From: an uncultured Planctomycetota bacterium | GTDB lineage: Bacteria; Planctomycetota; JAJSAM01; JAKLKS01 | Assembly (NCBI GenBank): GCA_964370855.1 | Contig: CAYJMF010000001.1 | Location: 133,167 to 197,166, forward strand | Direction: 5' to 3' | DNA length: 64,000 nt | In this document: positions 2,964-58,040 of the stretch, one piece after another | Numbering within the stretch: the stretch's first letter is position 1 | How the letters are laid out: each line of letters begins with the position of its first letter | Notes under the pieces: model-generated | Told to the model about the DNA's origin: nothing | What the model saw: only the letters and a program-made list of their open reading frames with translations | The model's database searches: none | Translations under genes and position numbers: made by a program

Positions 2964-5900
2964 CTACTCCACGCGCACGACCCCGCCCGCCGGCACCTCG
3001 AACTCCCGAACCACCGTCCAGCCCCGCGGGTCGTTCCACGAGGTGGACACCTTCGGAATGCGGCGGACGAGCCGGACGCGACCCGCGGGCATCCGGGGGA
3101 CGGCGAACTTCCCGTCCGCCCCCGCCGTCACGACGGCGGAGGCCCAGCGCCCCCCCTCCCCCTCCCACACGCAGGCGAAGGGCGCCAGCGAGGCGTCGAC
3201 CGTCCCCTCCACCCGGCCGAGGGGGAGCTCCAACATCCACGGGTTCTCCCCGGGCAGGAGTTCCACCGCGTCGAAGACGCGGAGGATCCCCTCGGGACCG
3301 CCAAGCGCCACCCGCCACGGGCCCGGAGCGGCGGCGGGAATCGAAAAGACCCCGTCGGCGCCGAGGGTGGCTGTCGCCGGGATCGCGGCGTAGGTCGCGT
3401 CGGGAATCGCGTCCACGGGGGAGAGGAGCCCCGCCGTCCAGCCCGCCGCGCCGCCGGGACCCTCCACGGACAGCCGCCCGCGGAGGACCGCCACCCCTTC
3501 CCCCGTCAGGTCGAGATCGCGCGTGACGGTGCGCCCCTCCTCCACGGCGCAGTTCCACCGGAACTCGCTCGTGCCGGGCCCGAAGGCCCCGCCGTCCCGC
3601 GCGGGCACGAGGCGGTCGTACTGCTGGAGGATCCAGGGCCCGGGGAGGAGCCCCTCGAAGCGGTAGCGCCCGTCGGCCCCCACGCGGAGGGACCGCGGTC
3701 GGGCGTCCCCGCGGTGGAGGGCCACGATGACCCCGTCGGGGCTCCGCCCCGCCGGCATCCGGACCTCTCCCGTGAGTGTCCCGCCCCGCCCGAGGGGAAT
3801 CTCGATGCCGGACACGCCGCCGGCGGGATCGAAATCGAAGGGCCCCGCCTCCGCCGGCGCGAAGCCGTCGGCCTCGACGCGGACCACGTATCGACCGGCG
3901 TTCTTCAGCGGCAGGGTGAACGCCCCCTCCGGTCCGGAACGCGCCTCGGCCTTGGGGTCGGGGTACCAGCGGAGGGGGAGCCCGTCCACGGTGGCCTTGG
4001 ACCCCGCTCCCACGACGGACAACGCCGCCACGCGGGCCCCGGGCACAGGGCTCTCCCCGTCGAGAACCCGCCCCTCGAGGGCGGCGACGGGATCGAGAAC
4101 GCACTCCACCGCGTCGGGCCCGGTGAGGGGGTCGAAGGGGCCGAGTTCCCGGTCCGCGAAGCCGGGGGCGCTCACCTCGATCTTGAAGGGGAAGCCCGGC
4201 GCCAGGAACTCCGCGGTGCCCTCATGATGCTCCCCCGGCGGGACGCCGAAGAAGGAGTCAAAGCGGACCGCAGCGGGAGTCAGGTGGGCGCGCCACGAGA
4301 TGACGGGCTCCCCGGTCCGGCTCCTGATCGAAAGTGCCACGCGGCGCGGCGCCGGGAACCTCATCTCGACGTCCCGATCCCCGGGATGGAGAGGCCAGGC
4401 GAGGGATGCTCCCCAGCGCCGATAGGGGTCCTTCACGAGCAAAGTGACCGTTCCCTGGTAGGCGGTGGGTATGCGGAACCGGCCGTCGGGCCCCCTATCC
4501 ACCTTCTGCGTGTTCAACCTGCCGGGTGCCTCGATGTGGGCGGAGAAGTCCAACGGATCCTTCAGGACGGTTCCATCGGGTGCCAGGACTCGCCCCTCCA
4601 CCCAGTCCTCGGGCCGCTCCGTTTCGATGCGAAGGTCCGTCCGCGCCTCCGTCCCGGCGCCGACCTCCACGGGATCGCTGCGCCCCGCGCGGTAGCCCGT
4701 ACGCCCCGCCCAGAGGTGCACCGTGCCCGCGGGCACGCCCTCCAGCAGGAACCCTCCCGTCCCGTCCGTGGCAGCGGGAACCCCGTGCGTGAGAATCTCC
4801 CGCCCGAGGAGGCGCCGCTCCTCGACGGGGCCCTTCGCACGTTCCGTCGCCTCCAGCCCGACCCACGCATCGGCAACCGGGGCGCCCTCCCCGTCGAGGA
4901 CCCGGCCGGCGATGGAGCCACCGGGACCGAGGGGGATGTCGCCGAGGGCCAGTTCCCGCTCCGCCACCACCCTGACGGCGAGGGCCCGGGTCTCCCTCCC
5001 GACGGCGGCCACGACCAGGGTGACGCGGTACTCCGTCTCCGGCCGCTTCCGCCATCCGGCCATGGGCGGCAGGGCGACGGCGAGCCGGCAGACGCCGTCC
5101 GGCCCCGTCCGCGCGCTCCCCTCGCCGTCCCCGGGCAGGATCGAGATCCGGGCACCTTCGATCGCCCTCCCCGTCTCCTCCACCACGCGCCCCGTCACCG
5201 TGAAGGGGATGCTCTCCGCCTTGAAGGAGGGTCCGCGCGGCTCGACGGGGGCGATGGCCGGGGGGGCGAGGGCCCCGGTTGAATCCCCGGGAGTCGGCCC
5301 CTTCCCCCCGGTCCCCTCCCCAAGAGCCGGGTCCGCTGTCCTATGGGGCCGGGGGGAATCCCCCGGCCCCCGCCAGAGGAGCCCCGCCGCGATAAGCACG
5401 CCCCCCGCCCCCCCCCCCGCCTTCGCCGCGGTCCCCATGAGAAGCCCTCCTCCCGTCGCCGCCGCCGCGGCCCCTCCCGCGGTTCCGGCCGCGGTCGGTA
5501 CTCCCTGTTCGCGCGCCAGCGGCAGCACGATCGCCATCCACGCTGCGCGATTCCCGCCGTTCTCCGCGTCGAGCCGCTCCCGAAGGAGTTCGAGGGCCCG
5601 CTTCAGCCGCCAGCGCACCGTCCCCTCCGGCGTTCCCTGGCGCCGCGCGATCTCCACGGAGGACATCCCCTCGTGGAAGCGGAGGAGGACCGTCGATCGA
5701 AACGGCTCCTCCAGGCCGGCGACGAGGGCCGCGAGCCGGCGCGCCGTCTCGAGGCGGGACGCCAGCTCCTCCGGCGACGGAAGCGGGGAGCGCTCCGGCC
5801 GGGCGGCGGCCTCCTCCCTCCGCTCCCTCCGGCCCGACTCGCGGAGGTCACGCCTGCGGAAGTTGCGCAGGACCGTGGCGAGCCAGGGGCGGACCGGTCC

Positions 5901-6056
5901 CCGGTCGTCGGGCGGGTGCTCCAGGGCGGCGAGCCAGGTCTCCTGGACCAGGTCGTCGGCGGCCGCGGAGTCCCGCACGAGGGACGCGGCGAAGGCCCGG
6001 ATCCACCCGGCGTGGGCCAGGAGGTCCTCGATCCGGACGGGAGCGGGCTCGGGCAT
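2964..6056 (-). CDS. ECF sigma factor fused via a hydrophobic segment to a ~800-aa CarboxypepD_reg-like repeat ectodomain
   Basis: ATG 6056. The N-terminal ~165 aa carry sigma-70 region 2 (DDLVQETWLAALEH, RPWLATVLRNF) and region 4 (STVLLRFHEGMSSVEIARRQGTPEGTVRWRLKRALELLRERL). A Gly/Ala-rich hydrophobic stretch follows (GGLLMGTAAKAGGGAGGVLIAAGLLW). The rest is repeated 'GRV(V/L)..G.P..GA.V .. DG.F.I.GL..G' modules. Confidence 0.85.
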   Translation of the reverse strand: MPEPAPVRIEDLLAHAGWIRAFAASLVRDSAAADDLVQETWLAALEHPPDDRGPVRPWLATVLRNFRRRDLRESGRRERREEAAARPERSPLPSPEELASRLETARRLAALVAGLEEPFRSTVLLRFHEGMSSVEIARRQGTPEGTVRWRLKRALELLRERLDAENGGNRAAWMAIVLPLAREQGVPTAAGTAGGAAAAATGGGLLMGTAAKAGGGAGGVLIAAGLLWRGPGDSPRPHRTADPALGEGTGGKGPTPGDSTGALAPPAIAPVEPRGPSFKAESIPFTVTGRVVEETGRAIEGARISILPGDGEGSARTGPDGVCRLAVALPPMAGWRKRPETEYRVTLVVAAVGRETRALAVRVVAERELALGDIPLGPGGSIAGRVLDGEGAPVADAWVGLEATERAKGPVEERRLLGREILTHGVPAATDGTGGFLLEGVPAGTVHLWAGRTGYRAGRSDPVEVGAGTEARTDLRIETERPEDWVEGRVLAPDGTVLKDPLDFSAHIEAPGRLNTQKVDRGPDGRFRIPTAYQGTVTLLVKDPYRRWGASLAWPLHPGDRDVEMRFPAPRRVALSIRSRTGEPVISWRAHLTPAAVRFDSFFGVPPGEHHEGTAEFLAPGFPFKIEVSAPGFADRELGPFDPLTGPDAVECVLDPVAALEGRVLDGESPVPGARVAALSVVGAGSKATVDGLPLRWYPDPKAEARSGPEGAFTLPLKNAGRYVVRVEADGFAPAEAGPFDFDPAGGVSGIEIPLGRGGTLTGEVRMPAGRSPDGVIVALHRGDARPRSLRVGADGRYRFEGLLPGPWILQQYDRLVPARDGGAFGPGTSEFRWNCAVEEGRTVTRDLDLTGEGVAVLRGRLSVEGPGGAAGWTAGLLSPVDAIPDATYAAIPATATLGADGVFSIPAAAPGPWRVALGGPEGILRVFDAVELLPGENPWMLELPLGRVEGTVDASLAPFACVWEGEGGRWASAVVTAGADGKFAVPRMPAGRVRLVRRIPKVSTSWNDPRGWTVVREFEVPAGGVVRVE

Positions 6057-7290: not shown

Positions 7291-7327
7291 GACGGGCACC
7301 GCCCTCCTTCGAGCCGTTCCCCCCGGC

Positions 7328-9472: not shown

Positions 9473-9613
9473 TTCGCGGCCTCCCCGTGGACCCGCTTCG
9501 GTGAACAGGCATCATCGTAGTGCCGGGCGGCGCGGAGGCGACGGCGCATCTCCATGGATTCGCGAACTCGCCTCCCCCTTCCCCTCCCCCCGCCCGTGAG
9601 GGACAATCCCACC

Positions 9614-13159: not shown

Positions 13160-13198
13160 AGGGGGCCTCCCGACGGGCACTCCGACGCCGGGACTGCC

Positions 13199-14155: not shown

Positions 14156-14321
14156 GGGGATCGAAGATACTCCCTCGAAGCCGGGTCCGCGGCCGGCCCT
14201 CTCCCCGGGGATTCCCCCCTCCGGACCGCACATGGGGTGGATCCCCCATGGACCTCCCGCCCCGCAGGGTCCAGAATGGCGCCGACCCACGGCCGGGGGA
14301 TCCTCCCCGGGGAGGAGGCGC

Positions 14322-28672: not shown

Positions 28673-28723
28673 CGGAATCCCGGCGTGGAGCCGCGCCCGC
28701 CCCCGGTGTACCCTCCTCCTCGC

Positions 28724-30214
28724 ATGCGTTCCTCCTCCCTCCAGGCCCTCCGCGCCCTCCTCGCCGTCGCCATGGCGGCGCTCTTCTACGCCATCGTCCT
28801 CGGGGTCCTCGCGCTCGTGGTCCGCCACCTCGTCGGGAAGTGGAGTTCCCCGTCCGGGTTCGACATGGACTACGGCGACTTCCTCCTGACCCTCAGCGCG
28901 CTGGCGATCCCCTGGGCGCTCTGGCCGCGGCGGGACGAGTTCATTCCGCCCGGTCCCCGGCTGGAGCCGGCGGCCCACCCCGCGCTCTTCCGGATGCTCG
29001 AGGAGGTGGCCGCCGCCGCGGGCCAGCCGATGCCGGAGGAGGTCTACCTCATGGGCGACTTCAACGCATGGGTGCGGGAGGCGGAGGGGCCCGCCCGGGG
29101 GCGGAGCCGATCGGTCATGGCCATCGGATACCCCCTCTTCCTCGCGCTCCCGCCGGCGCCGCTCCGCGCCATCCTGGCCCACGAGTTCGGCCACTACCAC
29201 GGGGGCGACACCCGGAACGCCCTCCGCTTCTACCGGGTGGACCGGGTGCTCGTGCGGACGGTGAACGGGCTGCGCTTCTTCAGCGGATACGTCTGGCTGC
29301 CCTTCTGGCTCTATTACCGCCTGTTCCGCACGGTCACCATGGCCGTCTCCCGCCGCCAGGAGCTCGCGGCGGACCGGCTCGCCGCCTCCATCGCCGGGCC
29401 GGAGGCGATGGGCACGGGGCTCTCCGCACTGCACTCCCTGGCACCCCCCTCCAACGGGTTCTGGGAATCCGACATGAAGGCCATCCTCGACGCCGGCGTC
29501 CGGCCGCCGCTCCTCGAGGGGCTCCGCAGGGCGCTCCGCAATCCCCTGCTCCGGAAGGCGGCGGAGGACTGCCTGGCGGAGGCGCGCACGGTGCGCCGGG
29601 CGAAGCTGACCGACTCCCACCCGACCCTTCCGCAGCGCCTCGCCGCCCTCGGCGTGGCGGCGGAGCCGACGGTCCCCTCCGGGGAGGAGGATTCCGCGGC
29701 GCTCCTCGGCCCGGTGGACCACCTCGAGGACGCCCTCCTCGGGAAGCGGGACCGGGGGAAGCTCGAGGCCGTCCCCTGGGAGGAGGTCGGCGAGCGGGTC
29801 GAGATCCCGGAACTGCGGAAACTGGTGGCCAGGAACCGCCGCGCGCTGCGCGGCCTCACCCCGAGCGACATGCCGACGCGGAAGAGGGACGTCAAGCGGA
29901 TCGCGAGGAGGACGAAGGCGGGTTGGCCGGGCCTCCTCGACCACAACGTGCGGAAGCACACGGCCTCCCTCGTCCTCGGGGGCGCCCTCCTCCTCCTCCT
30001 GCGGGAGAAGGGGTGGACCTTCGAGTGGTACCCGGGCGAGCCCCTCGTGTGCCACCGGGACGGGGTCCGCGTCCACCCCTACCGGGTCGTGGACGACCTC
30101 ATCGACGGCACCCTCCCGCTCGAAGAGTGGCTCCGCACCGCCGAGTCCATCGGCATCGCCCACGAGAGCCTGGAGGCGGTGGCGGCGCGGGCGGCGCAGG
30201 GGAAGGCGGGGTGA
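28724..30214 (+). CDS. M48-family (HtpX-like) membrane zinc metallopeptidase
   Basis: Start taken at ATG 28724 (MRSSSLQALRALLAVAMAALFYAIVLGVLALVV, TM); ORF start 28685 is also possible. Zinc motif 'ILAHEFGHYHGGD' with downstream 'QELAADRLA'. Long C-terminal extension. Confidence 0.8.
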   Translation: MRSSSLQALRALLAVAMAALFYAIVLGVLALVVRHLVGKWSSPSGFDMDYGDFLLTLSALAIPWALWPRRDEFIPPGPRLEPAAHPALFRMLEEVAAAAGQPMPEEVYLMGDFNAWVREAEGPARGRSRSVMAIGYPLFLALPPAPLRAILAHEFGHYHGGDTRNALRFYRVDRVLVRTVNGLRFFSGYVWLPFWLYYRLFRTVTMAVSRRQELAADRLAASIAGPEAMGTGLSALHSLAPPSNGFWESDMKAILDAGVRPPLLEGLRRALRNPLLRKAAEDCLAEARTVRRAKLTDSHPTLPQRLAALGVAAEPTVPSGEEDSAALLGPVDHLEDALLGKRDRGKLEAVPWEEVGERVEIPELRKLVARNRRALRGLTPSDMPTRKRDVKRIARRTKAGWPGLLDHNVRKHTASLVLGGALLLLLREKGWTFEWYPGEPLVCHRDGVRVHPYRVVDDLIDGTLPLEEWLRTAESIGIAHESLEAVAARAAQGKAG

Positions 30215-30241: not shown

Positions 30242-32059
30242 CTACTTCCCCGCCTTCCCGCCCCACTCGATCCACTCCTTCTCCAGGTCGGCGAGCTTGA
30301 CGCCGAGGGCCTCCTCGAGGGCCGCCGCGCGCCCGGCCGGTTCCACGGGGGTGCGGGCGATCTTCGGCAGCACCTCCCTCCACTTCTCCGAGCGGGGGCC
30401 GCGGGAGACGAAGGCGTAGAAGGCGCCCGCCTGCAGGAAGAGCGCCTCCGAGGTCCCGGCGCCGCCGGAGGCGTCGTCGCGGGCGTAGAGGTCGGGGATC
30501 GCCACGAACTCCGCGAGCGGGACGAACGTTCCCGTGCGCAGGTTCGGCGCGAACTCCGCCGCCGCGTCCCCCTTCTCCCAGGCCCTCTCCACGAGGACCG
30601 CCATCCCCTCCTGCAGCCAGGAGCCCCCCTCCTTCCCGCGGCCCCGGTGGAAGAGGGAGTGGACCAGCTCGTGGACCATCTGCGAATCCTCCGGCGCGCG
30701 GTAGGAGAGGACGATGCCGCGGGCGTTGCCGACGGCCGTGAGGCGCGCCGCCGCCCCCTCCGACCACCGCCACTCCCGCACGAGGAACTTCTTCAGCGTC
30801 TCCGGGTTCTGGAAGCAGTAGACGGGGATCGCCCGGTCGAGCTCGGGGAGCGCGAGGAGCTTCCGGGCGAACTCGTGGGCCTTCTCCAGCCCCGCGGGGA
30901 GCTTCGCCGCGGCGGCCGAGGAATCGGTGTAGAGATCGAAGTGGGCCGAGGGGCGGTGCATCCCCTTTCCGGCCTTCCTGTCCCCGAAGAGCATCCGGCA
31001 GACCTCCTCCTCGGAGAGGGTCCACCCCCCCTTGCCGCGGACGAGCTCGACGTCGTCGAGGAGGAGCACCCCCTTCACGGGCTTGAAGACGAAGATGCCG
31101 AGGTCCTCGCACCGGTCGGCGTCGAAGCTCCCCTGCTCGCGCATCTTCGGGATCTGGATCTCCACGGTCTGCCACTTCCGGCCCGGCTTCGGCACCTGCT
31201 CGGTGAGCGCGTTGGTGAATCCCGTCTGCAGCTTCACCTCCAGGGGCTGCGAGTCGTCGCCCTCGGCCCGGACCTTGAACCGGATGGTCCGGTAGTCGCG
31301 CAGGTTCCTCGGCAGGTCGAGGAAGTAGAGGGCCGCGGGGTCCGTCGTCCCGTCGATCTCCCAGCGCAGCACCGCCTTCTTCTTCTCGGGAACGGCGGCG
31401 ATGGTCCCCCCCTTGAAGTCGATGCGGTCGCCGACGGCGGGGTCCTCGAAGTCGTCGAGGACCCAGGCCGGCTCCATCTCCCGCGCCCGCCGCTCCGGGG
31501 AGATCTCCGTGGTCCGCTCGAGGACGACGTCGTCCACGAGGTACTCCCCCTTCCCCGGCTTCAGCAGGGTGAGGTCGATGCGGACGACCTTCGCGGGATC
31601 GTAGGCGCCCCTCACCGGCGTGCGGGCGAGGTCCACGGCGAAGGTCGTCCACTTCTCCGTGATGCCGGGGATGCGGAGGTAGGTCTCGTCCGTCGTCGTC
31701 GTGAAGACGCGGAGGTAGACCATCCCCGCTCCCGGGCCCTCGCGGCGGATGCGGAAGCGGACGCACTTCCAGGGGGAGAAGTCGGCGGGGAGGTTCTTGA
31801 ACTGGAGGGCCGCCTCCTCCCCGTTCCCCGGCAGGGTCCAGCGGGCCACGCGCCCGGGGCCGTCGTCGGGGTCCGGGACGGACCGGTACCCGCAGCCCTT
31901 GATGAGGATCTTCGCGTCGAGGGCGGGATCCTCGAAGTCGGCGACGACGAACCGCTCCCCGTCCGGGGGGTCGCCGTCCCCCGCGGGGGATGCAGGGGGC
32001 GTGGCCGCCAGCACCGCAAGCGCCGCCGCCGCCGCGAAACGAAGCATCGCGATCCTCAT
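30242..32059 (-). CDS. Secreted protein: two CBM/jelly-roll-like modules + C-terminal HExxH domain (DUF1570 / peptidase-MA-like, tentative)
   Basis: ATG 32059. Signal peptide MRIAMLRFAAAAALAVLAA. Duplicated 'DFEDPA..(I/D)..KG..' modules. C-terminal 'MVHELVHSLFH' (HExxH) followed by 'WLQEGMAVLVE', as in DUF1570-type proteins. Confidence 0.7.
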   Translation of the reverse strand: MRIAMLRFAAAAALAVLAATPPASPAGDGDPPDGERFVVADFEDPALDAKILIKGCGYRSVPDPDDGPGRVARWTLPGNGEEAALQFKNLPADFSPWKCVRFRIRREGPGAGMVYLRVFTTTTDETYLRIPGITEKWTTFAVDLARTPVRGAYDPAKVVRIDLTLLKPGKGEYLVDDVVLERTTEISPERRAREMEPAWVLDDFEDPAVGDRIDFKGGTIAAVPEKKKAVLRWEIDGTTDPAALYFLDLPRNLRDYRTIRFKVRAEGDDSQPLEVKLQTGFTNALTEQVPKPGRKWQTVEIQIPKMREQGSFDADRCEDLGIFVFKPVKGVLLLDDVELVRGKGGWTLSEEEVCRMLFGDRKAGKGMHRPSAHFDLYTDSSAAAAKLPAGLEKAHEFARKLLALPELDRAIPVYCFQNPETLKKFLVREWRWSEGAAARLTAVGNARGIVLSYRAPEDSQMVHELVHSLFHRGRGKEGGSWLQEGMAVLVERAWEKGDAAAEFAPNLRTGTFVPLAEFVAIPDLYARDDASGGAGTSEALFLQAGAFYAFVSRGPRSEKWREVLPKIARTPVEPAGRAAALEEALGVKLADLEKEWIEWGGKAGK

Positions 32060-32157
32060 GGAGGCCTCCTCCCTTCGACATCGTGGAGATTAGGGGGAAT
32101 GCCCCCGGGGATCGAGGGCGAACCGGGGACCGGCGTGACCGGAGACGGGGATCCATT

Positions 32158-32174
32158 GTATCCCCTTATGATAC
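32158..32174. repeat. GTATC-N7-GATAC palindrome, copy d
   Basis: GTATC cccttat GATAC. It lies 28 nt past the stop of the sigma-fusion gene (32202) and about 100 nt upstream of the ATG of 30242..32059. On the minus strand it overlaps a TACAAT hexamer (32155-32160). Coordinates were checked against codons of ORF 32056..32628(-). Confidence 0.6.
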
Positions 32175-32201
32175 ACTTGACGCTATCGACGACGCCCCCC
32201 C

Positions 32202-35200
32202 CTACTCCCCCGGCACCGCGAGCACGAGCCCCTCCGCCGGCGCCGCCACCTTCCCGAGGTCCACGGTCCGCGACCCGAGGTGCAGGGCCAGCGAGTGCTC
32301 CCCTGGACGGATCCCCCGGATGAGGAACGTGCCGCCATCGCCGAGGCGCGCCGACGCGCTCCACCCGTCGACGCGGAGCGTCCCCTCGCGGAGCGGCTTC
32401 CCGGCGGCGTCCACGACCGTCCCCGAGAGGACCGCCCCCCGCGCGAGCGCGAGGACGACCTCCGAAGCCCCGGCGGCGACGGGTTCCGCCGTCCGGGCCG
32501 AAAGGAAGTCGGTCGGCGGCCCCCCGGCGGAGAGGTCGTAGGGGCCGGGCGCCAGCCCCTCCAGGCGGAAGACCCCCCGCCCGTCGGTGGTCGCGAGGAC
32601 CGTCTTCCCCGGCTCCGGCCACGGCCACATCGAGCGGAGGTCGCGGGCGTACCCCGTGACGGCGATGCCCGGGATCGGCGCCCCCTCCCCGTCCACGACG
32701 CGGCCCTCCAGCGCCCCCCCCTTCGCCACGGTGATCACGAGGTCCGTCGTCCCCGGCCGCACCCCGCGGGCCGCGCCGCCGAGGAGGCCGGGGCGGCCGT
32801 GGACCACGAGGTCGTAGACCTTCCCCTCATCGAGGGGCGGCGTGACGAAGGAGCCGTCCTCCTCCCAGAGCCCCATTCCCGAGGAGAAGCCGCTCCCGTC
32901 GGCGTTCACGCCCCGCAGGTCGAACCCGCTGCTGCCCCGGGGGAGCGGGCTCCCGTCCTCGAGGAGGAGGCGGCCGCGGATGACGAGGGAGCGCCCGGGC
33001 CGGACGACGAGGTCCGTCGTCCCCGCGGCGACGGCGGGGACCCGCACCGGGGCGAGCCCGCCGCGGGGATCCACCTGGAGCACGTATTCCCCCGCGGGGA
33101 GGCCGCGGAAACGGAAGGCGCCGTCGAGACCGATGTCCGCGCGCTGGAAGACCCCCGGCCCGTTGAGGGTGACCATCCCCCCCGCCGCGGGGCGGTCCTC
33201 CCCGTCGAGGACCCGCCCGGCGATGGGGAGTCCGCGCCGCAGGAGCAGGCGCACCTCCCCGCTCCCCGCCGGCACGCCCGCGACCTTCACCGGCTCGAAC
33301 TCCCCCGTCGGCCCCGGATCGGAGATGCGGCCCGTGCAGACGTCGTACTTCACGTCCTCGAGCCCGTCGATGCGGAAGCGGCCCGCGCCGTCGGTCAGCG
33401 TCTCGCGGAGCCGGATGACGCCGCCCAGGAACAGGGAGCGGTTCGCCCAGACGAGGATCCCGGCGACGGGCTTCCCCGTCTCCTCCTCGACGGCGACGCC
33501 GGAGAGGGAGAGGGAATTCTCCAGGGCGAACACCTGCTCCTCCGCCCCGGGCGGGACTTCTCGAGAGGATTCGACGAAGCCCGGCGCCTCCACTTCGACG
33601 AAGGTCTCCTCCCGCGCGAGCCCGCCCACGGTGAACCTCCCCTCCCCGTCGGTGACGGCGTCCAAGGGGCCGTCCGTCTCCCGCCGTCGGGCGGGCATCG
33701 CCCGCACCGTCGCGCCGGGCACCGGCGCCCCCGCGCCGTCCACCGCCCGCCCCGCCAGCGTCCAGCCCACCTCGAGAACGAGATCTAGTTCCGTCCGCTC
33801 CTCCCCCTCCCCGAGCCCCTCGACGGCGGACCGGGCCGGGGGGCAGCCCTCGGCCCGAGCCTCGAGGGAGTGATCCCCCGCGGGCAATCCCTCGAAGCGG
33901 AAGGCGCCGTCCTCCCCGACGGCGGCGATGCGCTCCACCCGGTCCGGGGAGTACGCGCGGACGAAGGGGGCGGAGAGCGCCGCCCCGTCGGCGCGCCGGA
34001 CCCGGCCCGCGAGGCAGGAGGTGGAGGGTCGGGGCGGATCCTCCGCGTCGAGCACGACGTCGGCCAGGGTCCCGCCCCCGGCGGGCACCTCGACGCGGCA
34101 GGATTCCGGCACCTGCCCGCTGCGGAGGGCGGCCCAGGGATCCGCCGGCGTGGCCGTGTGGACGAGGCCCGGCGCGCGGACGCGGATCAGCGCCGCGCCG
34201 GCCAGGGCCCGGATCCCGTAGCGGCCCTCGGGCCCCGTGACGCCCGCCGGGGCGGCGATGTTGGCGGGCGCCGCGCCGGCGGCGGGAATCGGATGAAGGT
34301 CCACCACGGCGCCGGCCACGGGGGTGCCGTCCCGCCGGAGCACGCGGCCGTCCACGACCGCTCCCCGCCGGAGCCGGACCTCGACGCGCAGCCGATCCCC
34401 GGAGGCGAAGCGGTAGTGCGGGGGGAAGACGGCCGCGGTCCACAGGAAGTCGCGGAGGAACCCCGCCGCCTCCACCTCCAGCACGTAGGGGAGCGAGGGG
34501 GGGATGCCCTCCACCAGGAACTCTCCATCGCTCCCCGACGCGACTTCACGGCCGAAGGAGGCCGACCGCTGCATCCCGGAGACGATGGTCGCATGGAAGA
34601 AGACGCTCGCCCCGGGGACCGGGGCCCCCGTGGCGTCGTCCACGACCCGCCCCTCGAGGACGCAGCCCCCCTCGAGACGCAGGTCGAGGTTCCGCGGTCC
34701 GGGGACGCGGACGAAGGCGATGGCCCGGTGAAGCGCGCCCCCGGCGCGCACCGAGATCTCGTGGCTGCCCGGGGGGAGGCCCTCGAGCCGGTAGCGTCCC
34801 GCCCCGTCGGCCGTCGCGGCGCAGCCCCCGCCGAGGACCACGGCCCCCGGGAGCGGCGCCCCGTCGGGGCCGAGGACCGCGCCCTCGAGCGTGGAGGAGG
34901 AGAGGAGCACCACGGTGCGGGCCGCCTCCTCGCCTGCGCGGTCGATGCGGAGTTCCTCCTCGTGGATCCCGAATGCCGCCGCCGTCACGCGGAGGCGAAA
35001 GGCGCCGGGCGGGATCCCCGCGAGGACGGCGGCGCCGTCGGCTCCGCTCACCGCCGCCGCCGTCGCGGGCGTCCCGCCGGGAATCGGTTCCCGGAACTGC
35101 TGGCGCCAGGAGTTGTCCTCGATGCGAAGCGGCCGGGGCTCCACGGCGACCCGGGCCAGGCCCACGGGTCGGCCCGCGCCATCGATCACGCGGACCGCGA

Positions 35201-36101
35201 GGCGGGCCCCGGCGACGGGGGGGGCGACGGCCCCCCCCGTCGTATCCGTCGGCGCGGGATCGGCCGGCCCTGCTGGGCGGCCGTGCGCCCTCGGGGTGCT
35301 ACCGCCGCTCACCGTCGCGGGGACCGGAGGCTCCCCGGTGCTCAGCGCCCACCACCCGGCGGTGCCGAGCAGGATCAGCGCCGCCGCGACGGCGGCCGTG
35401 CCCTTCTTCGCCATGAGGAGTCCTCCCGCCGCCGCCGCCGCCGATGCGCCCGCACCCCCCGCCGCCACCGGCACGGGGACCCGCCGAAGAAGTTCCTTCC
35501 GCACCGCGTCCAGCCCCCGCGGGACCCGCGCCCCGAAGAGGAAGGCCGGCAGCACGCCCATCCCGACGCGCAGTTTCTCCACGGCCCGGTGGAGGAGGGA
35601 GCGCACAGTCCCCGGCGGCTCGCCGCGGATGTGGGCGATCTCCCCCGGCTCGAGGCCGTACCGCCACCGCATGAGGGCGACGGCGCGGTAGGGCTCGGGG
35701 AGGGAGTCGAGGGCCTCGCGGACCTTTCCCTCCAGCTCCCTCCGCTCCGCCTCGTCGGCGGGATCCGCCGGGAGGAGGCGCGGCTCGATGCGGAGGGGGT
35801 CCACGGTCCGCCCCCCCCGCCACCGCTCCCGCCCCACCTTGTGGCGGAGGATCCCGAGGAGCCACGGCATCACCGGGAGCGCGGGGTCGTACCGGTCGGC
35901 CTGCTCCAGGGCCGCGAGGAAGGTCTCCTGGAGGGCGTCCTCCGCCGAGGCGGCGTCCCGGGAGAGGGAGAGGGCGACCCGGAAGAGGACCGGCGCCGTC
36001 GCGTCGAAGAGCGCGCCGAGGGCGGCCGGCTCCCCGGTCGAGCGGAAGCGGGCGAGGAGGTGCTCGGGCGCGGTCGTGCCGACCGGTGTCGGGGGAGGCA
36101 T
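32202..36101 (-). CDS. ECF sigma factor fused via a TM helix to a ~1,045-aa CarboxypepD_reg-like repeat ectodomain
   Basis: ATG 36101 (residue 127 of ORF 32202..36479). Region 2 'EDALQETFLAALEQADRYD..MPWLLGILRHKV', region 4 'PEPYRAVALMRWRYGLEPGEIAHIRGEPPGTVRSLLHRAVEKLR', TM 'GTAAVAAALILLGTAGWWAL' (aa ~234-253), then repeats. It ends '..DLGKVAAPAEGLVLAVPGE'. Confidence 0.85.
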   Translation of the reverse strand: MPPPTPVGTTAPEHLLARFRSTGEPAALGALFDATAPVLFRVALSLSRDAASAEDALQETFLAALEQADRYDPALPVMPWLLGILRHKVGRERWRGGRTVDPLRIEPRLLPADPADEAERRELEGKVREALDSLPEPYRAVALMRWRYGLEPGEIAHIRGEPPGTVRSLLHRAVEKLRVGMGVLPAFLFGARVPRGLDAVRKELLRRVPVPVAAGGAGASAAAAAGGLLMAKKGTAAVAAALILLGTAGWWALSTGEPPVPATVSGGSTPRAHGRPAGPADPAPTDTTGGAVAPPVAGARLAVRVIDGAGRPVGLARVAVEPRPLRIEDNSWRQQFREPIPGGTPATAAAVSGADGAAVLAGIPPGAFRLRVTAAAFGIHEEELRIDRAGEEAARTVVLLSSSTLEGAVLGPDGAPLPGAVVLGGGCAATADGAGRYRLEGLPPGSHEISVRAGGALHRAIAFVRVPGPRNLDLRLEGGCVLEGRVVDDATGAPVPGASVFFHATIVSGMQRSASFGREVASGSDGEFLVEGIPPSLPYVLEVEAAGFLRDFLWTAAVFPPHYRFASGDRLRVEVRLRRGAVVDGRVLRRDGTPVAGAVVDLHPIPAAGAAPANIAAPAGVTGPEGRYGIRALAGAALIRVRAPGLVHTATPADPWAALRSGQVPESCRVEVPAGGGTLADVVLDAEDPPRPSTSCLAGRVRRADGAALSAPFVRAYSPDRVERIAAVGEDGAFRFEGLPAGDHSLEARAEGCPPARSAVEGLGEGEERTELDLVLEVGWTLAGRAVDGAGAPVPGATVRAMPARRRETDGPLDAVTDGEGRFTVGGLAREETFVEVEAPGFVESSREVPPGAEEQVFALENSLSLSGVAVEEETGKPVAGILVWANRSLFLGGVIRLRETLTDGAGRFRIDGLEDVKYDVCTGRISDPGPTGEFEPVKVAGVPAGSGEVRLLLRRGLPIAGRVLDGEDRPAAGGMVTLNGPGVFQRADIGLDGAFRFRGLPAGEYVLQVDPRGGLAPVRVPAVAAGTTDLVVRPGRSLVIRGRLLLEDGSPLPRGSSGFDLRGVNADGSGFSSGMGLWEEDGSFVTPPLDEGKVYDLVVHGRPGLLGGAARGVRPGTTDLVITVAKGGALEGRVVDGEGAPIPGIAVTGYARDLRSMWPWPEPGKTVLATTDGRGVFRLEGLAPGPYDLSAGGPPTDFLSARTAEPVAAGASEVVLALARGAVLSGTVVDAAGKPLREGTLRVDGWSASARLGDGGTFLIRGIRPGEHSLALHLGSRTVDLGKVAAPAEGLVLAVPGE

Positions 36102-36163
36102 GCACAGAGAGTTACAGGAAGGAAGGGTCCGCGTTGCACGGGATCCCCGGATTCCCGGCGCGC

Positions 36164-39100
36164 CTACTCGAACTTCAGCTCCACGCCCGCCGCCGGGGCC
36201 TCGATGACGCCCCCGTCCACCGGCTTCGCCTGGCGGCGGGTGTCCACGACCTTCACCCGATGGGGCCCCGGCGCGAGGCCGGAGATCCGGAAACTCCCGT
36301 CCTCGCGGACGCGGGCGGAGACACCGGTCGACTCGGGGCCGCCGACCGGGGTCGCGATCACCGCGAGCGGCCCCTCCCCCGTCCCGGCGACGCGTCCCTC
36401 GATGGCCGCCCCGAAGGCGAGCCGGAACTCCAGGGGCTTCCCGTCGGCGGCGGCCGTCGCGGCCGCGGCCGGCGCCCACTCCGTCCCCCCGGTCCGGACC
36501 GAGACGCGGAAGCGGAACTCTCCGAGCCTCTCCATCGAGAAGGACCCCTCCCCGTCCGTGGAGGCCTCCCCCCTCGTCCCGTCCTCCGGGCCCCGCGCGT
36601 CCATCGCCTCGGCCCGCACCCCGAGCCCGCGGAGGGGGGCGCCGCCCGCGTCGTAGACCCGGCCGGCGAGGGCGAGCCCCCGCCCGAGGAGGAGGGTCGC
36701 CTCCCCCGCCCCCGGGCGCGCGCCCCGGAGGAACCCGCCAACCCCGGACCGGCCGCCGTGGAGGAAGAGGTCGTAGGCCAGGCCGGGATCGAGGCCGGGG
36801 ATCACGAAGCTCCCGTCCCGCTCCGCCTTCACCCGGCGCTCGGTCCCGGGCTCCGGCTTCCCCTCACCGGCGGGAACCGCGCCGACGGAGAGAGCGAGAT
36901 CCTCCAGCCGCTCCGTCACGTCCACGATGCGACCCTTGAGATCCACGCCAGCGACAAGGCGAATCTCGACGTCCTCCCGCCCCGCCTTGACGTCGCCGAG
37001 GACCGCCGGCAGAAGCGCCCCGCTCCTCTCCCCGCCGCGCCGCCAGTCCGGCGGCCAGGCGAAGACGCGGGTGGGGCCGGCGGGGAGGGCGCGGAACCGG
37101 AAGGAGCCGTCCGCCGCCGTCATGGTCCCCTCCCGCTGCTTCTCAGGCAAGGTCCCGACCCCGACCCGGGCCCCGGCCACGGGCCCGCCTTCGGCGTCGA
37201 GGACGCGGCCGGCGAGGGGGAAGCCCGGCTCCATCTCGAGGGTGACGGGCGCCCCCCCCGCCTCGGCCTTGGAGGACGGCCGGTGGAGCCAGGACCCGGG
37301 CGGCAGGACCTGGAGATCGTGGACTCCCGGGCGGAGGCCGGCGATCCGGAAGCGGCCCCGCGCATCGGAGGTGGATGTTCCGTGGGAGGGCATCGGGGAG
37401 GGAACGCCTCGGGGTGCCGCCACGGGGGGCCCGGAGGCCGTGACCATCGCGCCGGCGATGGGCTCCTCCGTGTCCGCCCGCACCACCCTCCCCTCGAGGG
37501 TGCGTGCGCGGAGGAGCGGAATGCGCACCTCCTCTCCCTCGACGGTGGGGTACTCGGGCACGTACCCGGCGGCGGCGACGTTGATCCGCTGCGGCCCCGC
37601 CTCGAGCCCGCCGAGGACGAACCGCCCCTCTAGGTCCGTCGTCTGCGCGGCCGTCCTCGCGACGACCCGGGCGCCCGGCACGGGGCGTCCCTCCTCGTCG
37701 ATGACGACGCCGCGGAGCGTCGCCTCCGCGCGGAGGCGGATCTCCACCGGCCCCCGCTCCTCCCCGCCGACGAGGTCGGGGAGTTCGAAGGTTCCCTCCG
37801 CGTGGCCCGCGTGCCGGACGAGGAGGACCTGCTGCGGGTAGCCGCGGAGGCCGGTGATGCGGAACGTCCCGTCGGCGGCGCACACCGCCGAGGGAATTCC
37901 GCTCGCCCCGGGGGGACCGAACTCCGAGTGGGACGCCGCGGTCCCGGCGGCGCTGCGGACCTCCGCCCCCGCCACGGGGCCGCCGGCCGCGTCGAGGACG
38001 ACGCCGTGCACCGAGGCTCCCCGGGGGACGACCCGGCGCAGCCCCTCCACGGAGCCACCGTCGGGGATGTCGAACGCGGGGAGAAGGGGCGTCGAACCCG
38101 CTCCCCCCTCGAGGGCGAGGGAGTATCCCCGGCCGGGGGGAACACCGTGGATGGCGAAACTGCCGTCCGGCGCCGACCGCGCGAAGCCCCGCGCGGCTCC
38201 CCCCTCCGCCGCGAGGTTCAGGATGAGCCCGGCCTCCGGGCGCCCCTCCGCGTCCACGAGGATCCCCGAGACCGTGCCGCCGCGGCGGAGCACGAGGTCG
38301 ATGGAGCAGGCGCCCTCCTCCGGCACCACCACGGAGCACTCGGGGGGGAAGCCCTCCGCCCGGGGCATCATGAAGCCCATGCCGCCGGGATACGCGGGCT
38401 GCCACCAGCCCGCCGCGGAGACCTTCACCATGGCCGGCCCGATCCGCGCCCCGCCGAGGACGAAGGTCCCGTCGGGGAGCACGGTGGCTCCCCTGCCGAC
38501 CGAGAAGCCACCGGGGCCCGTGGCCTGGGCGAGCTGGACATGGGCGAAGGGCACGGGGGAGCCGTCCTCCCCGCGGACCGTGCCGCGGATCGTCCGCGCG
38601 CGCTGGAGCCGGAGATCGAGGGGCTCCCCCGGCAGGAGGGAATCGGGCCGCCCCCCGGCGACGGTCCAGCGCCCGTCGAGGTGATCCCTCGCGGCGGCGA
38701 ACAGGAGCACGCCCGTCCCGCCGGGCGACGGGAGGGCGAACGTCCCCTCCCCGTCGGTCTCCGTGTCCACTCTCCCGGAGGGGCCGTCGAAGGGAGGGTA
38801 CCCGTGGGCGGTGACGACGGCCCCGGCGATTCCCGCACCCGTCTCCGCGTCCCGCACCCGGCCCCGCAGGGTATCCACGGGAACGCAGACCAGGCGGATC
38901 GGATCCGCGGAGGGGACCGCGACCCGGTCCTTCCCCGCCTTCACGCCGGAGGGGAGCAGGGCGGAGACCGCGACGGTGCCCGGCGCGAGGCCCTCGAGGC
39001 GGCAGGCGCCGTCGGCCCCGGTGATCGCCTCGACGACGACCTCGCTCCACGCCGCCCGCACCCGGGCGCCCGGCACCGGCAGGCCGGCCCCGTCGGTCAC

Positions 39101-39862
39101 CTCCACGTCGAGCGTCGTGCCCGGACCGAGGACCAGGTCCACGGGTTCCGGATCCCGATCCGGGGCCACGAGGATCTCCCGTACCTTCGCCGCCCTCCCC
39201 GCGGCCACGGCCTCCAGCCGGTAGATCCCCGGCTCCAGGGAGGGGAACGCGCCGCGCCCCCCTTCGTCCGCCTCCGTCCGGGCGGCGACGGCCCAGGGGG
39301 CGGCGTCGTCCCGGCGGACCGGGACCGCGGAACTCCACGACGGCGCCTGGCGGAGGAGGAGGCGGGCGCCGGCCGCGGGGCCGCCTTCCCCGAGGAGGAC
39401 CCGGGCCGCGAGCGCGCGGCCCTCGCCGAGGGGGATCACGCCGAGGTCGAGGGTTCCCGTCCGGGGGACGATCAGTCCCGGCCGGAGCGCCGCGGCGAGG
39501 CCGGGGGAAGTGAGCGCCGCGTCCACCCGGGAACCACGGGGAAGTCCGCTGATGCGAAACCTCCCGTCGGCGCCCGCCACCGCCCTGAGGACGGTGCCGT
39601 CGCCGAGGGTGACGGCGACCGCGACGGGGAGAGGTTCCACGGTCCCGCGGCGGACCGCCCATCCCTCGAGGTCGGTCGTCGGGGGGGCGGGCGCCGGAGG
39701 AGCGGGTGCGGGCGGGGCGCCCTCGGCGCGGGCGGCCGGGAATGCCGTTGACGTCCGCTCCTCCGGCGGAAACGTCCCGCCGTCTTCACGGAGCAGCAGG
39801 GCCCCCGCCCCGAGGACGGCGAGCACCGCGAGGCCGACCGCTACCTTCGGGACCCGGGCCAT
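36164..39862 (-). CDS. Membrane-anchored CarboxypepD_reg-like repeat protein (paralog family), first gene of the sigma-fusion operon
   Basis: ATG 39862. TM MARVPKVAVGLAVLAVLGAGALLL, Pro/Ala linker, then more than 10 repeats. The stop at 36164 is only 62 nt upstream of the sigma-fusion start at 36101 on the same strand. Confidence 0.85.
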   Translation of the reverse strand: MARVPKVAVGLAVLAVLGAGALLLREDGGTFPPEERTSTAFPAARAEGAPPAPAPPAPAPPTTDLEGWAVRRGTVEPLPVAVAVTLGDGTVLRAVAGADGRFRISGLPRGSRVDAALTSPGLAAALRPGLIVPRTGTLDLGVIPLGEGRALAARVLLGEGGPAAGARLLLRQAPSWSSAVPVRRDDAAPWAVAARTEADEGGRGAFPSLEPGIYRLEAVAAGRAAKVREILVAPDRDPEPVDLVLGPGTTLDVEVTDGAGLPVPGARVRAAWSEVVVEAITGADGACRLEGLAPGTVAVSALLPSGVKAGKDRVAVPSADPIRLVCVPVDTLRGRVRDAETGAGIAGAVVTAHGYPPFDGPSGRVDTETDGEGTFALPSPGGTGVLLFAAARDHLDGRWTVAGGRPDSLLPGEPLDLRLQRARTIRGTVRGEDGSPVPFAHVQLAQATGPGGFSVGRGATVLPDGTFVLGGARIGPAMVKVSAAGWWQPAYPGGMGFMMPRAEGFPPECSVVVPEEGACSIDLVLRRGGTVSGILVDAEGRPEAGLILNLAAEGGAARGFARSAPDGSFAIHGVPPGRGYSLALEGGAGSTPLLPAFDIPDGGSVEGLRRVVPRGASVHGVVLDAAGGPVAGAEVRSAAGTAASHSEFGPPGASGIPSAVCAADGTFRITGLRGYPQQVLLVRHAGHAEGTFELPDLVGGEERGPVEIRLRAEATLRGVVIDEEGRPVPGARVVARTAAQTTDLEGRFVLGGLEAGPQRINVAAAGYVPEYPTVEGEEVRIPLLRARTLEGRVVRADTEEPIAGAMVTASGPPVAAPRGVPSPMPSHGTSTSDARGRFRIAGLRPGVHDLQVLPPGSWLHRPSSKAEAGGAPVTLEMEPGFPLAGRVLDAEGGPVAGARVGVGTLPEKQREGTMTAADGSFRFRALPAGPTRVFAWPPDWRRGGERSGALLPAVLGDVKAGREDVEIRLVAGVDLKGRIVDVTERLEDLALSVGAVPAGEGKPEPGTERRVKAERDGSFVIPGLDPGLAYDLFLHGGRSGVGGFLRGARPGAGEATLLLGRGLALAGRVYDAGGAPLRGLGVRAEAMDARGPEDGTRGEASTDGEGSFSMERLGEFRFRVSVRTGGTEWAPAAAATAAADGKPLEFRLAFGAAIEGRVAGTGEGPLAVIATPVGGPESTGVSARVREDGSFRISGLAPGPHRVKVVDTRRQAKPVDGGVIEAPAAGVELKFE

Positions 39863-40094
39863 CTCTGCCTCCCCGGCTGGATCCTACCGGCCCCTCCCGC
39901 CGCCGGCGGGGAAGGGAATCAAATCCAACGGTGACCGGGGAGGCGGGTTCGGGGAATCGGAGGTCAATTCGGATCCGGGATCTTCTACGTCGCGTCCTTC
40001 TCCGCGTGACCATGGTAGGCACGGTGGTCCCTCCCCCACGGGTGCTCGATGAAGTCCATGAACCGGGCAGGTTGCCGTCGGTACACTTCGGCCA

Positions 40095-40796
40095 ATGGAC
40101 ACCTACAGCGTGTACTGCGACGAGAGCGGCCACATGCCGACCGGAGACCAGCCGGTCATGGTCCTTGGCGCACTGTGGTGCCCTTCGACCGAGATCCGCC
40201 GCTTGTCAGGGGCGATGCGAGGGATCAAGAGGGCGCATGGACTCGCGGCCTCCATGGAGGCGAAGTGGACCAAGGTCTCACCGGCCGGGTTTGATCTCTA
40301 CCGGGACATGGTGCGCCTATTCCTCGATGAACCTCACCTGCAGTTCAGGTGCATCGTCATTCGGGAGAAGGAGAAGTTGCGGCACGCGGCATACGGCCAG
40401 GACCATGACACGTGGCTCTACAAGATGTACTACAGCATGCTCAAGGTGGTCATCAAGCCGGGGGCGCAGTGGCGCATCTACCTCGACATCAAGGACACTC
40501 GAAGCGCGAGCAAGATGCGGGGACTTCACGATGTCCTGTGCAACACCATCCGCGACTTCGACAAGTCGATCATCGCGCGCATCCAGACCATCCGCTCGCA
40601 CGAGAGCGAACTCCTTCAACTGTCCGACATTCTCATCGGGGCGGTCCAATCCGCCAATCGGAGTGCCCCGAAGGAAGGGGCGAAGGGCAGGCTGATCGAG
40701 TTCATTCGCCATCGCACAGGCCTGAGCCTGACCTCTTCGACGTGGCTCACCGAGCCGAAGTTCAATGTGTTCGCCTGGACGCCGAGAGAGGAATAG
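40095..40796 (+). CDS. DUF3800 family protein
   Basis: N-terminal 'YSVYCDESGH' and the overall pattern (..KW.K...., ..YLD.KDTRS.., ..ESELLQLSDILIGAV) are typical of DUF3800. The gene is visibly lower in GC and uses A/T-ending codons compared with its flanks. Confidence 0.85.
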   Translation: MDTYSVYCDESGHMPTGDQPVMVLGALWCPSTEIRRLSGAMRGIKRAHGLAASMEAKWTKVSPAGFDLYRDMVRLFLDEPHLQFRCIVIREKEKLRHAAYGQDHDTWLYKMYYSMLKVVIKPGAQWRIYLDIKDTRSASKMRGLHDVLCNTIRDFDKSIIARIQTIRSHESELLQLSDILIGAVQSANRSAPKEGAKGRLIEFIRHRTGLSLTSSTWLTEPKFNVFAWTPREE

Positions 40797-40811
40797 GGGG
40801 CCGCGTCACCG

Positions 40812-41321
40812 ATGCCTCCAAGCTGGCTCCCGGGGCTACTCGACTACTCGGGAGATCTCCCGACCTATATTGAGACGGTGTTCGCCCGATACAAGGCGGA
40901 CTTGAGTGCCGGCGGGCTGGCGGTGTTCGGGGTCCCGGTGATAGTGCCCGCGAGCCCGCTCGTCGACGGCAAGCCCAGGACCTTCTGGCATCTCGTTTCC
41001 GAGGACAGCAGTGACTTCCCGGGAGCCGAACGCGGAGTCAGCATCTCGCGGTGCGAGAGGATCGGGTGGGTCCGCGCGATCATCGACCATCACACGGATC
41101 CCACGCTGAAGCGCTGGACTGCAACGCGCAACGGGAAGAGGAATCTACTGCTCGCCCTTCCGGACTTTGACTATGTGGCAATCTTCGCACTGCTGGATGG
41201 GGCGGCACCGCCACAACTGCCAGCCAGGGGGAGAGCGCGTCTGTTGACTGCATTCCCTGCGCGGTATCCCCACAGGAGAAGGAAGTTCCAGCGAGATTAC
41301 GACGGGGGGAACAAGGTGTAG
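40812..41321 (+). CDS. Hypothetical protein, partner of DUF3800 (no domain recognised)
   Basis: It starts 15 nt after the DUF3800 stop on the same strand and shares the atypical composition. 169 aa with non-shadow-like composition (..FWHLVSE..RCERIGWVRAIIDHH..DYVAIFALL..LLTAFPARYPHRRRKFQRDY). Confidence 0.7.
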   Translation: MPPSWLPGLLDYSGDLPTYIETVFARYKADLSAGGLAVFGVPVIVPASPLVDGKPRTFWHLVSEDSSDFPGAERGVSISRCERIGWVRAIIDHHTDPTLKRWTATRNGKRNLLLALPDFDYVAIFALLDGAAPPQLPARGRARLLTAFPARYPHRRRKFQRDYDGGNKV

Positions 41322-41326
41322 GGTCC

Positions 41327-41350
41327 GGCGCCGCCTGCATCGGCGGCGCC
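41327..41350 (+). terminator. Perfect 9-bp-stem hairpin after the DUF3800 cassette
   Basis: ggcgccgcc-tgcatc-ggcggcgcc starts 6 nt after the TAG at 41319-41321. A second inverted repeat follows: tactcct (41353-59) / aggagta (41384-90). No U-tract. Confidence 0.45.
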
Positions 41351-41502
41351 AGTACTCCTTCTACGCATGGTAGACGAGCTTAGAGGAGTATGGCACACGG
41401 AGGGGGCTTGGTCAAGGCCCGTGCGCTGCATCCGCTCGGGTCCGTGGTGAGAACGGAAGGTGGGCGACCCCTCCCGCCGCCGGGGGGGGGGTCCCGAACC
41501 TC

Positions 41503-46088: not shown

Positions 46089-46295
46089 GCGCTCCCACGT
46101 GCCCGGGCGGGCGAGGGCAAGGACGGACGCGACTCCCGCTGACAGTCCTTCGCCACCATCCCCACCGCCCCCCCGGAGACCTGGATGCCGAGTTCACCGT
46201 CGAAGGCCCGACGGGTACCATGGCCGGGCCATGAAGAAGGGAGTGCCGGTCGGGAACGCGATCCTCGTCGCCGCGGTGCAGGCAAAGGCGGAGTG

Positions 46296-55651: not shown

Positions 55652-55654
55652 GGG

Positions 55655-56287: not shown

Positions 56288-56325
56288 TGCAAGGAAAGTA
56301 TATCAAATAACTTGCACATGGTCAA
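56288..56325 (-). promoter_or_regulatory. abiE promoter with inverted-repeat operator; near-leaderless
   Basis: On the minus strand: TTGACC (56325-56320) - 17 nt - TATACT (56302-56297), only about 10 nt upstream of ATG 56287. Inverted repeat tgcaag (56288-93) / cttgca (56311-16) brackets the -10. The sequence is locally AT-rich. Confidence 0.45.
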
Positions 56326-57131: not shown

Positions 57132-57146
57132 GGCCGCGCCCTCCCC

Positions 57147-57935: not shown

Positions 57936-58040
57936 GCTGGTGCCCTCCGCGGGACGGAGCGCATCCTACCCGGCCCCGGCCTCCCCGTGCCCCGGGGGAG
58001 CGCCGCGGGGTTACCATCCATCCATTCCCCCGGGGGCGCC

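Follow-up and report, generated by a model that had tools for sequence, protein, structure and literature searches.

Can a sigma factor work when it is built into a membrane protein several times its own size? Planctomycetota encode dozens of extracytoplasmic function (ECF) sigma factors per genome, and it has been asked whether those with extensions of up to 10 times their own size can function at all (PMC7671368). The question is raised again by a 64,000-nucleotide (nt) stretch of contig CAYJMF010000001.1 from an uncultured Planctomycetota bacterium (hereafter the window; G+C content ~75%), in which two large genes lie adjacent on the minus strand: an N-terminally anchored repeat-protein gene (the anchor-only paralog, 36164-39862) and, 62 nt further on, a gene that joins an ECF sigma factor to a transmembrane (TM) helix and a repeat ectodomain (32202-36101). 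The gap, the shared strand and the anchor-only architecture of the upstream gene are as described in a first-pass annotation of this DNA. By its sequence, the fusion is a member of a large uncharacterised Planctomycetota family already present in databases and not a one-off. We assign a probability of about 0.5 to the reading that its product is a one-component transmembrane sigma factor, inhibited by its tether and freed by regulated proteolysis.

The first in-frame ATG of the fusion gene is at 36101. A longer, GTG-initiated reading (to 36479) runs into the upstream gene and was rejected because every relative starts at the equivalent Met. The G+C content at third codon positions (GC3) in the coding frame is at least 0.87 along the whole 1299-aa (amino acid) open reading frame (ORF; range 0.87-0.99), a 1299-aa protein with 99% identity (P0031) comes from an independent assembly, and a 1302-aa ortholog (P0032) with 52% identity aligns end to end. 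The continuous ORF of sigma domain, TM helix and ectodomain, for which a frameshift or sequencing error had been named as one refuting possibility, is thus intact.

The two sigma regions noticed earlier are both complete (Table 1), and the fusion protein scores 63 bits against the TIGR02937 sigma70-ECF model, for which the cut-off is 42.9. As in other ECF (group 4) sigma factors, only regions 2 and 4 are present, without region 3 or 1.1. The core-binding and helix-turn-helix (HTH) motifs are intact, the best sequence match of the sigma domain in the PDB is M. tuberculosis SigL (1.9e-14), and the Foldseek matches of the sigma model are ECF sigmas without exception. The cut-offs of two planctomycetal subfamily models were missed (45.9 vs 183.75 bits for TIGR02984 plancto1 and 58.1 vs 124.55 for TIGR02989 gvs1). 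In its scores and its modelled fold the sigma core is an ordinary ECF, and it is clearly under purifying selection. In the AlphaFold2 model, regions 2 and 4 are arranged with a root-mean-square deviation of ~10-12 Å to anti-sigma-bound ECFs and ~20 Å to holoenzyme forms, which is weak evidence because the predicted template modelling score is only 0.49 (low inter-domain confidence).

Region 4 and the TM helix are separated by a linker of about 45-55 aa, in which two segments stand out when conservation is computed over 164 long family members. The first is an amphipathic helix after region 4, with R195 conserved in 79%, G196 in 91%, L197 in 92%, V200 in 85% and R201 in 93%. The second is an Ala/Gly-rich juxtamembrane tract, modelled with a predicted local distance difference test (pLDDT) score below 50 at aa 216-231 and ending in conserved G226 (78%), G227 (88%), K232 (71%) and K233 (78%). 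Motif conservation of 71-93% is much above what a passive tether would need. The TM helix itself, proposed earlier and located here by both hydropathy and structure prediction, corresponds to the sole strongly hydrophobic 19-residue stretch outside the repeats (Kyte-Doolittle window at aa 235); this segment is hydrophobic family-wide, and W250 is 72% conserved. We infer an N-in/C-out topology, with the sigma domain cytoplasmic and the ~1,045-aa array periplasmic, which fits the two lysines at 232-233 on the N-terminal side of the helix. A single TM helix with Gly residues, preceded by an Ala/Gly-rich juxtamembrane tract, is suggestive of a substrate of intramembrane proteolysis. The ectodomain, whose great length had been pointed out before, contains nine CarboxypepD_reg stretches according to Pfam and shares 30-32% identity with the anchor-only paralogs of the window. 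No separate anti-sigma gene had been seen, and indeed no neighbour of the fusion gene among the window ORFs scanned matches an anti-sigma Pfam family; likewise, none is listed beside the sigma gene in any relative's locus.

Met230 (window 35410-35412), directly before the two lysines and the TM helix, is M in 38% of family members and occupies the position equivalent to the start codon of the anchor-only paralogs. This position would suit an ancestry in which an anchored array gene was captured, and translation might also start internally at Met230 to give an anchor-only isoform.

The first-pass annotation had implied that such a fusion is rare, which the database searches contradict. A search with the N-terminal 300 aa found 19 close relatives that share the same linker and TM helix, and the complete ones all run on into the TM helix and an ectodomain. 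In a full-length search, ~80 of the 120 best matches combine PF04542 and PF13620 at 750-1470 aa; several of these are annotated merely as 'sigma-70 family'. A profile of the N-terminal module retrieved 2,281 cluster representatives at E<=1e-30 (1.84 billion searched), the top 150 all at E<1e-78 and most of them 1000-1400 aa long, with P0031 as the top match. A second copy lies in the window itself. The close relatives with a named source all come from Planctomycetota metagenome-assembled genomes. A generic ECF peptide pattern, run against genome contigs, recovered only 2-3 true family loci (L003, L004, L006) among 80. The family chassis, as we read it, is sigma2, sigma4, an amphipathic RGLxxVR helix, an Ala/Gly-rich tract, GGxLMxKK and a TM helix. 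The fusion protein shows each delimiting feature, namely a profile match at E<1e-78, RGLxxVR, GGxLMxKK and a single TM helix (aa 195-254). The chassis appears to carry exchangeable periplasmic domains, mostly CarboxypepD_reg arrays, some cupredoxin-like and a few prenyltransferase-like. Two ectodomains without any family match (P0003, P0005) have a CDVHGWM motif, which may be read as a cupredoxin-like copper site, and three proteins (P0099, P0107, P0114) carry PF13243 (prenyltransferase-like) on the same chassis.

One metagenomic contig (L083) holds three sigma fusions of this family within 14 kb (6001-7557, 9840-13303 and 13367-end), preceded by TGCAAC/TGCAAG ~37 nt before the start codon, or 58 nt at the third, where the called start is TTG. 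One of these ectodomains has the cupredoxin-like motif, and one gene is broken by a run of N. Frameshifts in long-read assemblies cut short two other relatives, P0013 (L001 8001-11011) and P0015 (L002 8001-10765); in each case the CarboxypepD_reg array runs on in the following ORF, so that database lengths of ~400-500 aa understate the true size.

The cognate promoter of an ECF sigma factor has an 'AAC' -35 element and usually lies upstream of the sigma factor's own gene. Upstream DNA was aligned for relatives that are 42-61% identical in protein and have unrelated upstream neighbours (pseudouridine synthase, alaS, riboflavin synthase, isocitrate dehydrogenase and others). Of the 11 loci scored, 7 have TGCAAC or CGCAAC at 33-38 nt ahead of the start codon (binomial P~4e-15), one-base variants (TGCAAG, TGCAGC) stand at the same position in three further loci, and a twelfth site was found on L083 at 9803, before a third family gene on that contig. 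In the window, the motif is at 36138-36133, and GTGCAACG is unique in all 64 kb. The form xGCAAC(C/G) is a documented ECF -35 element of the Streptomyces coelicolor sigmaE regulon (PMC6767563). A candidate -10-like hexamer follows after 18 G+C-rich bases; A/T-containing hexamers stand at the same offset in relatives (AAGATA, TAAGGT, CAAGTA, AACAAT, CAAATC), and the start codon comes 4-10 nt past the hexamer. No Shine-Dalgarno sequence precedes the start codon of the sigma fusion, and a search of 31900-40200 gave neither a sigma-70-type promoter nor an intrinsic terminator. Because the conserved GCAAC lies in the 62-nt gap directly before it, the sigma gene is proposed to have its own near-leaderless, probably autoregulated promoter. 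In the second fusion of the window, GCCAACG precedes the ATG by 38 nt. A GGCAAC near the array paralog 18117-21938 was dismissed, the ATG after it being out of frame.

These features suggest the following mechanism. A bona fide ECF sigma factor would be built as a single-pass N-in/C-out membrane protein and held inactive by its membrane tether, with the conserved helix after sigma4 possibly folding back as a short in-cis anti-sigma element. This helix may be a minimal element of that kind, or else a contact for a protease or for RNA polymerase (RNAP). On sensing a cue from the periplasm or the envelope, the repeat array would set off regulated proteolysis, first trimming of the ectodomain and then intramembrane cleavage, and the freed sigma domain would transcribe its targets, including its own gene, from the near-leaderless TGCAAC promoter. 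Proteolytic activation is established for the sigma/anti-sigma hybrid IutY and has been proposed for SCO4117 of ECF52 (PMC8999054). Several points weigh against this proposal. Neither the window ORFs scanned nor the gene tables of the relatives revealed a site-2 protease gene. The linker has no zf-HC2, RskA or FecR match in Pfam and no recognisable anti-sigma domain, there is no Cys in aa 1-426 (the first is at aa 427), and the helix after sigma4 is predicted at moderate confidence only. On the DNA side, the -10-like element is ill-defined, without the CGT that is usual for ECFs, and a regulon search with [TC]GCAACG in the window and the 12 loci found promoter-positioned sites only before sigma-fusion genes. 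The GCAAC motif could also be the target of another factor.

Proteolytic release and action at the membrane had both been offered as options for a tethered sigma factor, and both are sensible. Under the second, which we consider unlikely, the sigma factor would stay uncleaved and act from the membrane as ToxR and CadC do: core RNAP would be recruited by the full-length protein to DNA close to the membrane, and the ectodomain would adjust activity either allosterically or through oligomerisation. The predicted disordered Ala/Gly spacer (aa 216-231) and the ~55-aa linker could span the necessary distance, the window ORFs scanned show no obvious protease partner, and near-leaderless promoters of paralogous sigma genes cluster, as in the three within 14 kb on L083. 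However, we know of no sigma factor that works while membrane-anchored. When a holoenzyme forms, sigma4 sits on the beta-flap and the RNA exit path is occupied by the sigma2-sigma4 linker, which is sterically demanding close to a membrane. The characterised TM-tethered sigma hybrids become active through proteolysis (PMC8999054).

Quite unlikely is a 'fortuitous' capture without any sensory role, in which a duplicated sigma module landed before an anchored CarboxypepD_reg gene, so that the product would serve mainly as a structural protein of the envelope, with a sigma domain that is controlled only transcriptionally or is poorly functional. Just such an origin was proposed for planctomycetal extensions by Pinto and da Fonseca (PMC7671368). 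The portion from the two lysines onward, with TM helix, Pro-rich spacer and arrays, resembles an anchor-only N-terminus, with M230 at the start-codon position, and the ectodomain is just 30-32% identical to the array paralogs in the window. Against this, the fusion is ancient and maintained, with full-length orthologs at 52% identity, and hundreds of representatives that differ by more than 50% keep the sigma domain, linker motifs, TM helix and arrays. With its core-binding and HTH motifs intact, the sigma domain scores as an ECF. Family-wide conservation makes a captured extension without a sensory role improbable, and the conserved linker and promoter point to selection on the whole unit.

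Very unlikely is the operon model of the first-pass annotation, in which the anchor-only gene and the sigma fusion are autoregulated together from GAACC-N16-CGTT upstream of the anchor-only gene. The two genes share a strand, 62 nt separate them and the region shows no terminator-like hairpin; the motif, which counted as GAAC-N16-CGT equals GAACC-N15-CGTT, is ECF-like in form and sits in a 232-nt intergenic region. However, while the sequence itself is present, its reading as an autoregulated promoter is not supported: GAACC-N14-16-CGTT occurs at chance frequency (2 in the window vs 1.04 expected, and at least 2 in 28 of 100 shuffles), and no motif of this type lies upstream of the other array paralogs in the window or of the second sigma fusion. 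Immediately ahead of the sigma gene, the relatives examined have another conserved element, which in the window falls within the 62-nt gap. In none of the loci examined in relatives is the sigma gene preceded by an anchor-only gene, and the operon is not supported either. An apparent pair of this kind on L083 was withdrawn, since its 750-aa array ORF is the tail of the sigma fusion starting at 9840, broken by a run of N. In a tblastn search, the DNA upstream of the anchor-only gene showed no remnant of a sigma module. Read-through from the anchor-only gene could still occur, as no terminator was found. The window is a paralog-rich region, with at least five further anchored arrays and a second fusion (pairwise identity only ~30%); the array family takes up a large share of it, and the adjacency of the two genes therefore looks like a by-product of the paralog cluster.

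An elaboration of the proteolytic reading, to which we give very little credence, sees the conserved chassis as a processing module complete in itself. Once the ectodomain is shed and the membrane segment cleaved, the Ala-rich stub would be engaged by an ATP-dependent protease, which would stall on the conserved Gly/Ala tract beside the folded sigma4 and RGLxxVR helix and so release intact sigma through partial processing, and the array would sense the assembly state of the surrounding paralogous anchored arrays by homotypic contacts. This may be likened to NF-kB p105 and to the yeast membrane-tethered Spt23/Mga2. If true, it would amount to Planctomycetota-specific surveillance of envelope integrity, with cross-regulation among paralogous sigmas that share the TGCAAC promoter.

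The weakest alternative, that an assembly error or frameshift joined a sigma gene and a repeat gene, is effectively refuted: some relatives are indeed broken by frameshifts or gaps (P0013, P0015 and the L083 ORF at 9840), but there the errors split the gene and do not fuse it, the coding frame is continuous in GC3, the 1299-aa and 1302-aa proteins come from independent assemblies, and the linker/TM junction is kept in more than 160 proteins.

That sigma domain, specific linker, TM helix and array are kept together, with a promoter element of their own, argues for function. The family would offer a concrete, testable chassis for a transmembrane sigma pathway that consists of one component and has no anti-sigma partner, and its members would be better annotated as membrane-tethered ECF sensors than as plain 'sigma-70 family' or 'carboxypeptidase regulatory-like' proteins.

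Other features of the window were noticed as well. The product of the gene 30242-32059 (minus strand), 142 nt downstream of the sigma fusion, is a secreted protein: it has a signal peptide and two repeats in its N-terminal part, and its C-terminal part carries the motif HELVH...EGMA (HExxH), with a weak Peptidase_MA_2 match (E=0.025). Between the two genes the DNA has an AT-rich stretch, GTCAAG-N15-TACAAT. A Peptidase_M48 family gene (28685-30214, plus strand) is convergent with the gene cluster of the sigma fusion. Neither this peptidase nor the HExxH protein is among the called neighbours of the relatives examined. On the other side, a patch of lower G+C content (40001-41400, ~65% vs 75%), maybe foreign DNA, holds a DUF3800 gene (40095-40796, plus strand) divergent from the anchor-only gene. 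An HTH_66 and DUF433 protein (6141-6899, plus strand) is encoded immediately upstream of the second sigma fusion and divergent from it. An ~1,100-aa protein (57132-60425, plus strand) has a weak CarboxypepD_reg stretch and a C-terminal PDZ_2 domain. Finally, an AbiEii nucleotidyltransferase toxin gene (54680-55651, minus strand) adjoins a DUF6088 gene (55655-56302, minus strand), maybe an AbiEi-like antitoxin, and the pair (54680-56302) looks like a type IV toxin-antitoxin system.

Table 1. Positions in the 64-kb window of the sigma fusion gene, its parts, candidate promoter elements and paralogs
Feature	Position	Strand	Details
Sigma-TM-ectodomain fusion coding sequence	32202..36101	-	1299 aa; stop codon 32202-32204; in-frame GC3 0.87-0.99
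Sigma region 2	35829..36011	-	aa 31-91; Pfam PF04542 Sigma70_r2, E=4e-10; AlphaFold2 pLDDT >90; Foldseek matches are ECF sigmas
Sigma region 4	35571..35726	-	aa 126-177; Pfam PF08281 (Sigma70_r4_2) and PF04545
Conserved amphipathic post-sigma4 helix RGLDAVRKELLRRV	35478..35519	-	aa 195-208; AlphaFold2 helix aa 197-207, pLDDT ~60-77
Ala/Gly-rich juxtamembrane tract ending GGLLMAKK	35403..35465	-	aa 213-233; predicted disordered
Single transmembrane helix (predicted)	35340..35402	-	aa 234-254; Kyte-Doolittle 19-aa window maximum 1.71 at aa 235; AlphaFold2 helix aa 235-254
Ectodomain: Pro-rich spacer, then ~9 CarboxypepD_reg (transthyretin-like) repeats	32205..35339	-	PF13620, E=2.5e-81, 9 stretches
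Family-conserved -35-like TGCAAC	36133..36138	-	37 nt before ATG, inside 62-nt gap
Candidate -10-like hexamer TAACTC	36109..36114	-	18 nt after -35, 7 nt before ATG; proposed from relatives
GAACC-N15-CGTT site of the first-pass annotation	39927..39950	-	GAACC 39950-39946, CGTT 39930-39927; present, chance frequency
Anchor-only paralog	36164..39862	-	1232 aa; N-terminal signal anchor; 10 CarboxypepD_reg stretches; Shine-Dalgarno GGAGG before ATG
Second sigma-TM-CarboxypepD_reg fusion	2964..6056	-	1030 aa; sigma domain 40% identical to first; linker differs
N-terminally anchored CarboxypepD_reg array paralog	9554-13159	+	
N-terminally anchored CarboxypepD_reg array paralog	13830-17957	+	
N-terminally anchored CarboxypepD_reg array paralog	18117-21938	-	
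N-terminally anchored CarboxypepD_reg array paralog	46185-48281	+	
N-terminally anchored CarboxypepD_reg array paralog	48335-51856	-	

Planctomycetal ECFs with very large and diverse C-terminal extensions have been analysed before (PMC7671368, PMC7826278, PMC8999054). The fusion protein is like them in its phylum, in an extension several times the size of the sigma domain, in the lack of an anti-sigma gene, in extension domains that vary among close sigma paralogs and in the clustering of these paralogs. It is unlike them in its strongly conserved linker-TM chassis and in its CarboxypepD_reg arrays, which stand in place of WD40. ECF57 (formerly ECF01-Gob) has WD40 extensions and two conserved Cys that link sigma2 and sigma4 (PMC8999054); the fusion protein has no WD40 match in Pfam and no Cys in its sigma domain.

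ECFs with TM-containing C-terminal extensions are also known, namely IutY, ECF52/48/53 and ECF263. IutY of Pseudomonas putida (an ECF243 hybrid) has the same order of N-terminal ECF sigma, one TM helix and periplasmic C-terminal domain, and its activation by Prc and RseP releases the sigma factor (PMC8999054), so that it appears to be the best mechanistic model for the fusion gene. IutY differs in having a FecR-type anti-sigma domain and in working with a TonB-dependent receptor in cell-surface signalling, whereas the linker of the fusion is only ~45 aa, has no FecR match in Pfam, and no TonB-dependent receptor was found among the window ORFs scanned. SCO4117 (ECF52), ECF48 and ECF53 of Actinobacteria likewise combine an ECF sigma, one or more TM helices, a Pro-rich region and an extracytoplasmic domain, and proteolytic activation has been proposed for them (PMC8999054). 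Proteins of the SCO4117 type have a zinc-finger (ZAS) domain between sigma and TM helix, extensions of at most ~400 aa and a carbohydrate-binding ectodomain; the fusion protein has an extension of ~1,100 aa with CarboxypepD_reg repeats and no zinc finger, as neither the HxxxCxxC motif (first Cys at aa 427) nor a zf-HC2 match is present. The short helical cytoplasmic segment before the TM helix recalls class II two-helix anti-sigmas (CnrY/NepR-type; CnrH-CnrY, PDB 4cxf), and the RGLxxVR helix could mimic such an element in cis, with no detectable sequence similarity to CnrY/NepR-type domains. In a literature check that was not full, no paper on a CarboxypepD_reg ectodomain on an ECF was found. 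With no FecR, zinc finger, WD40 or conserved Cys detected, the fusion protein is apparently without the defining features of the named ECF groups tested. What is new here, compared with these systems, is the set of conserved linker motifs, the family promoter element and the corrected operon and promoter model.

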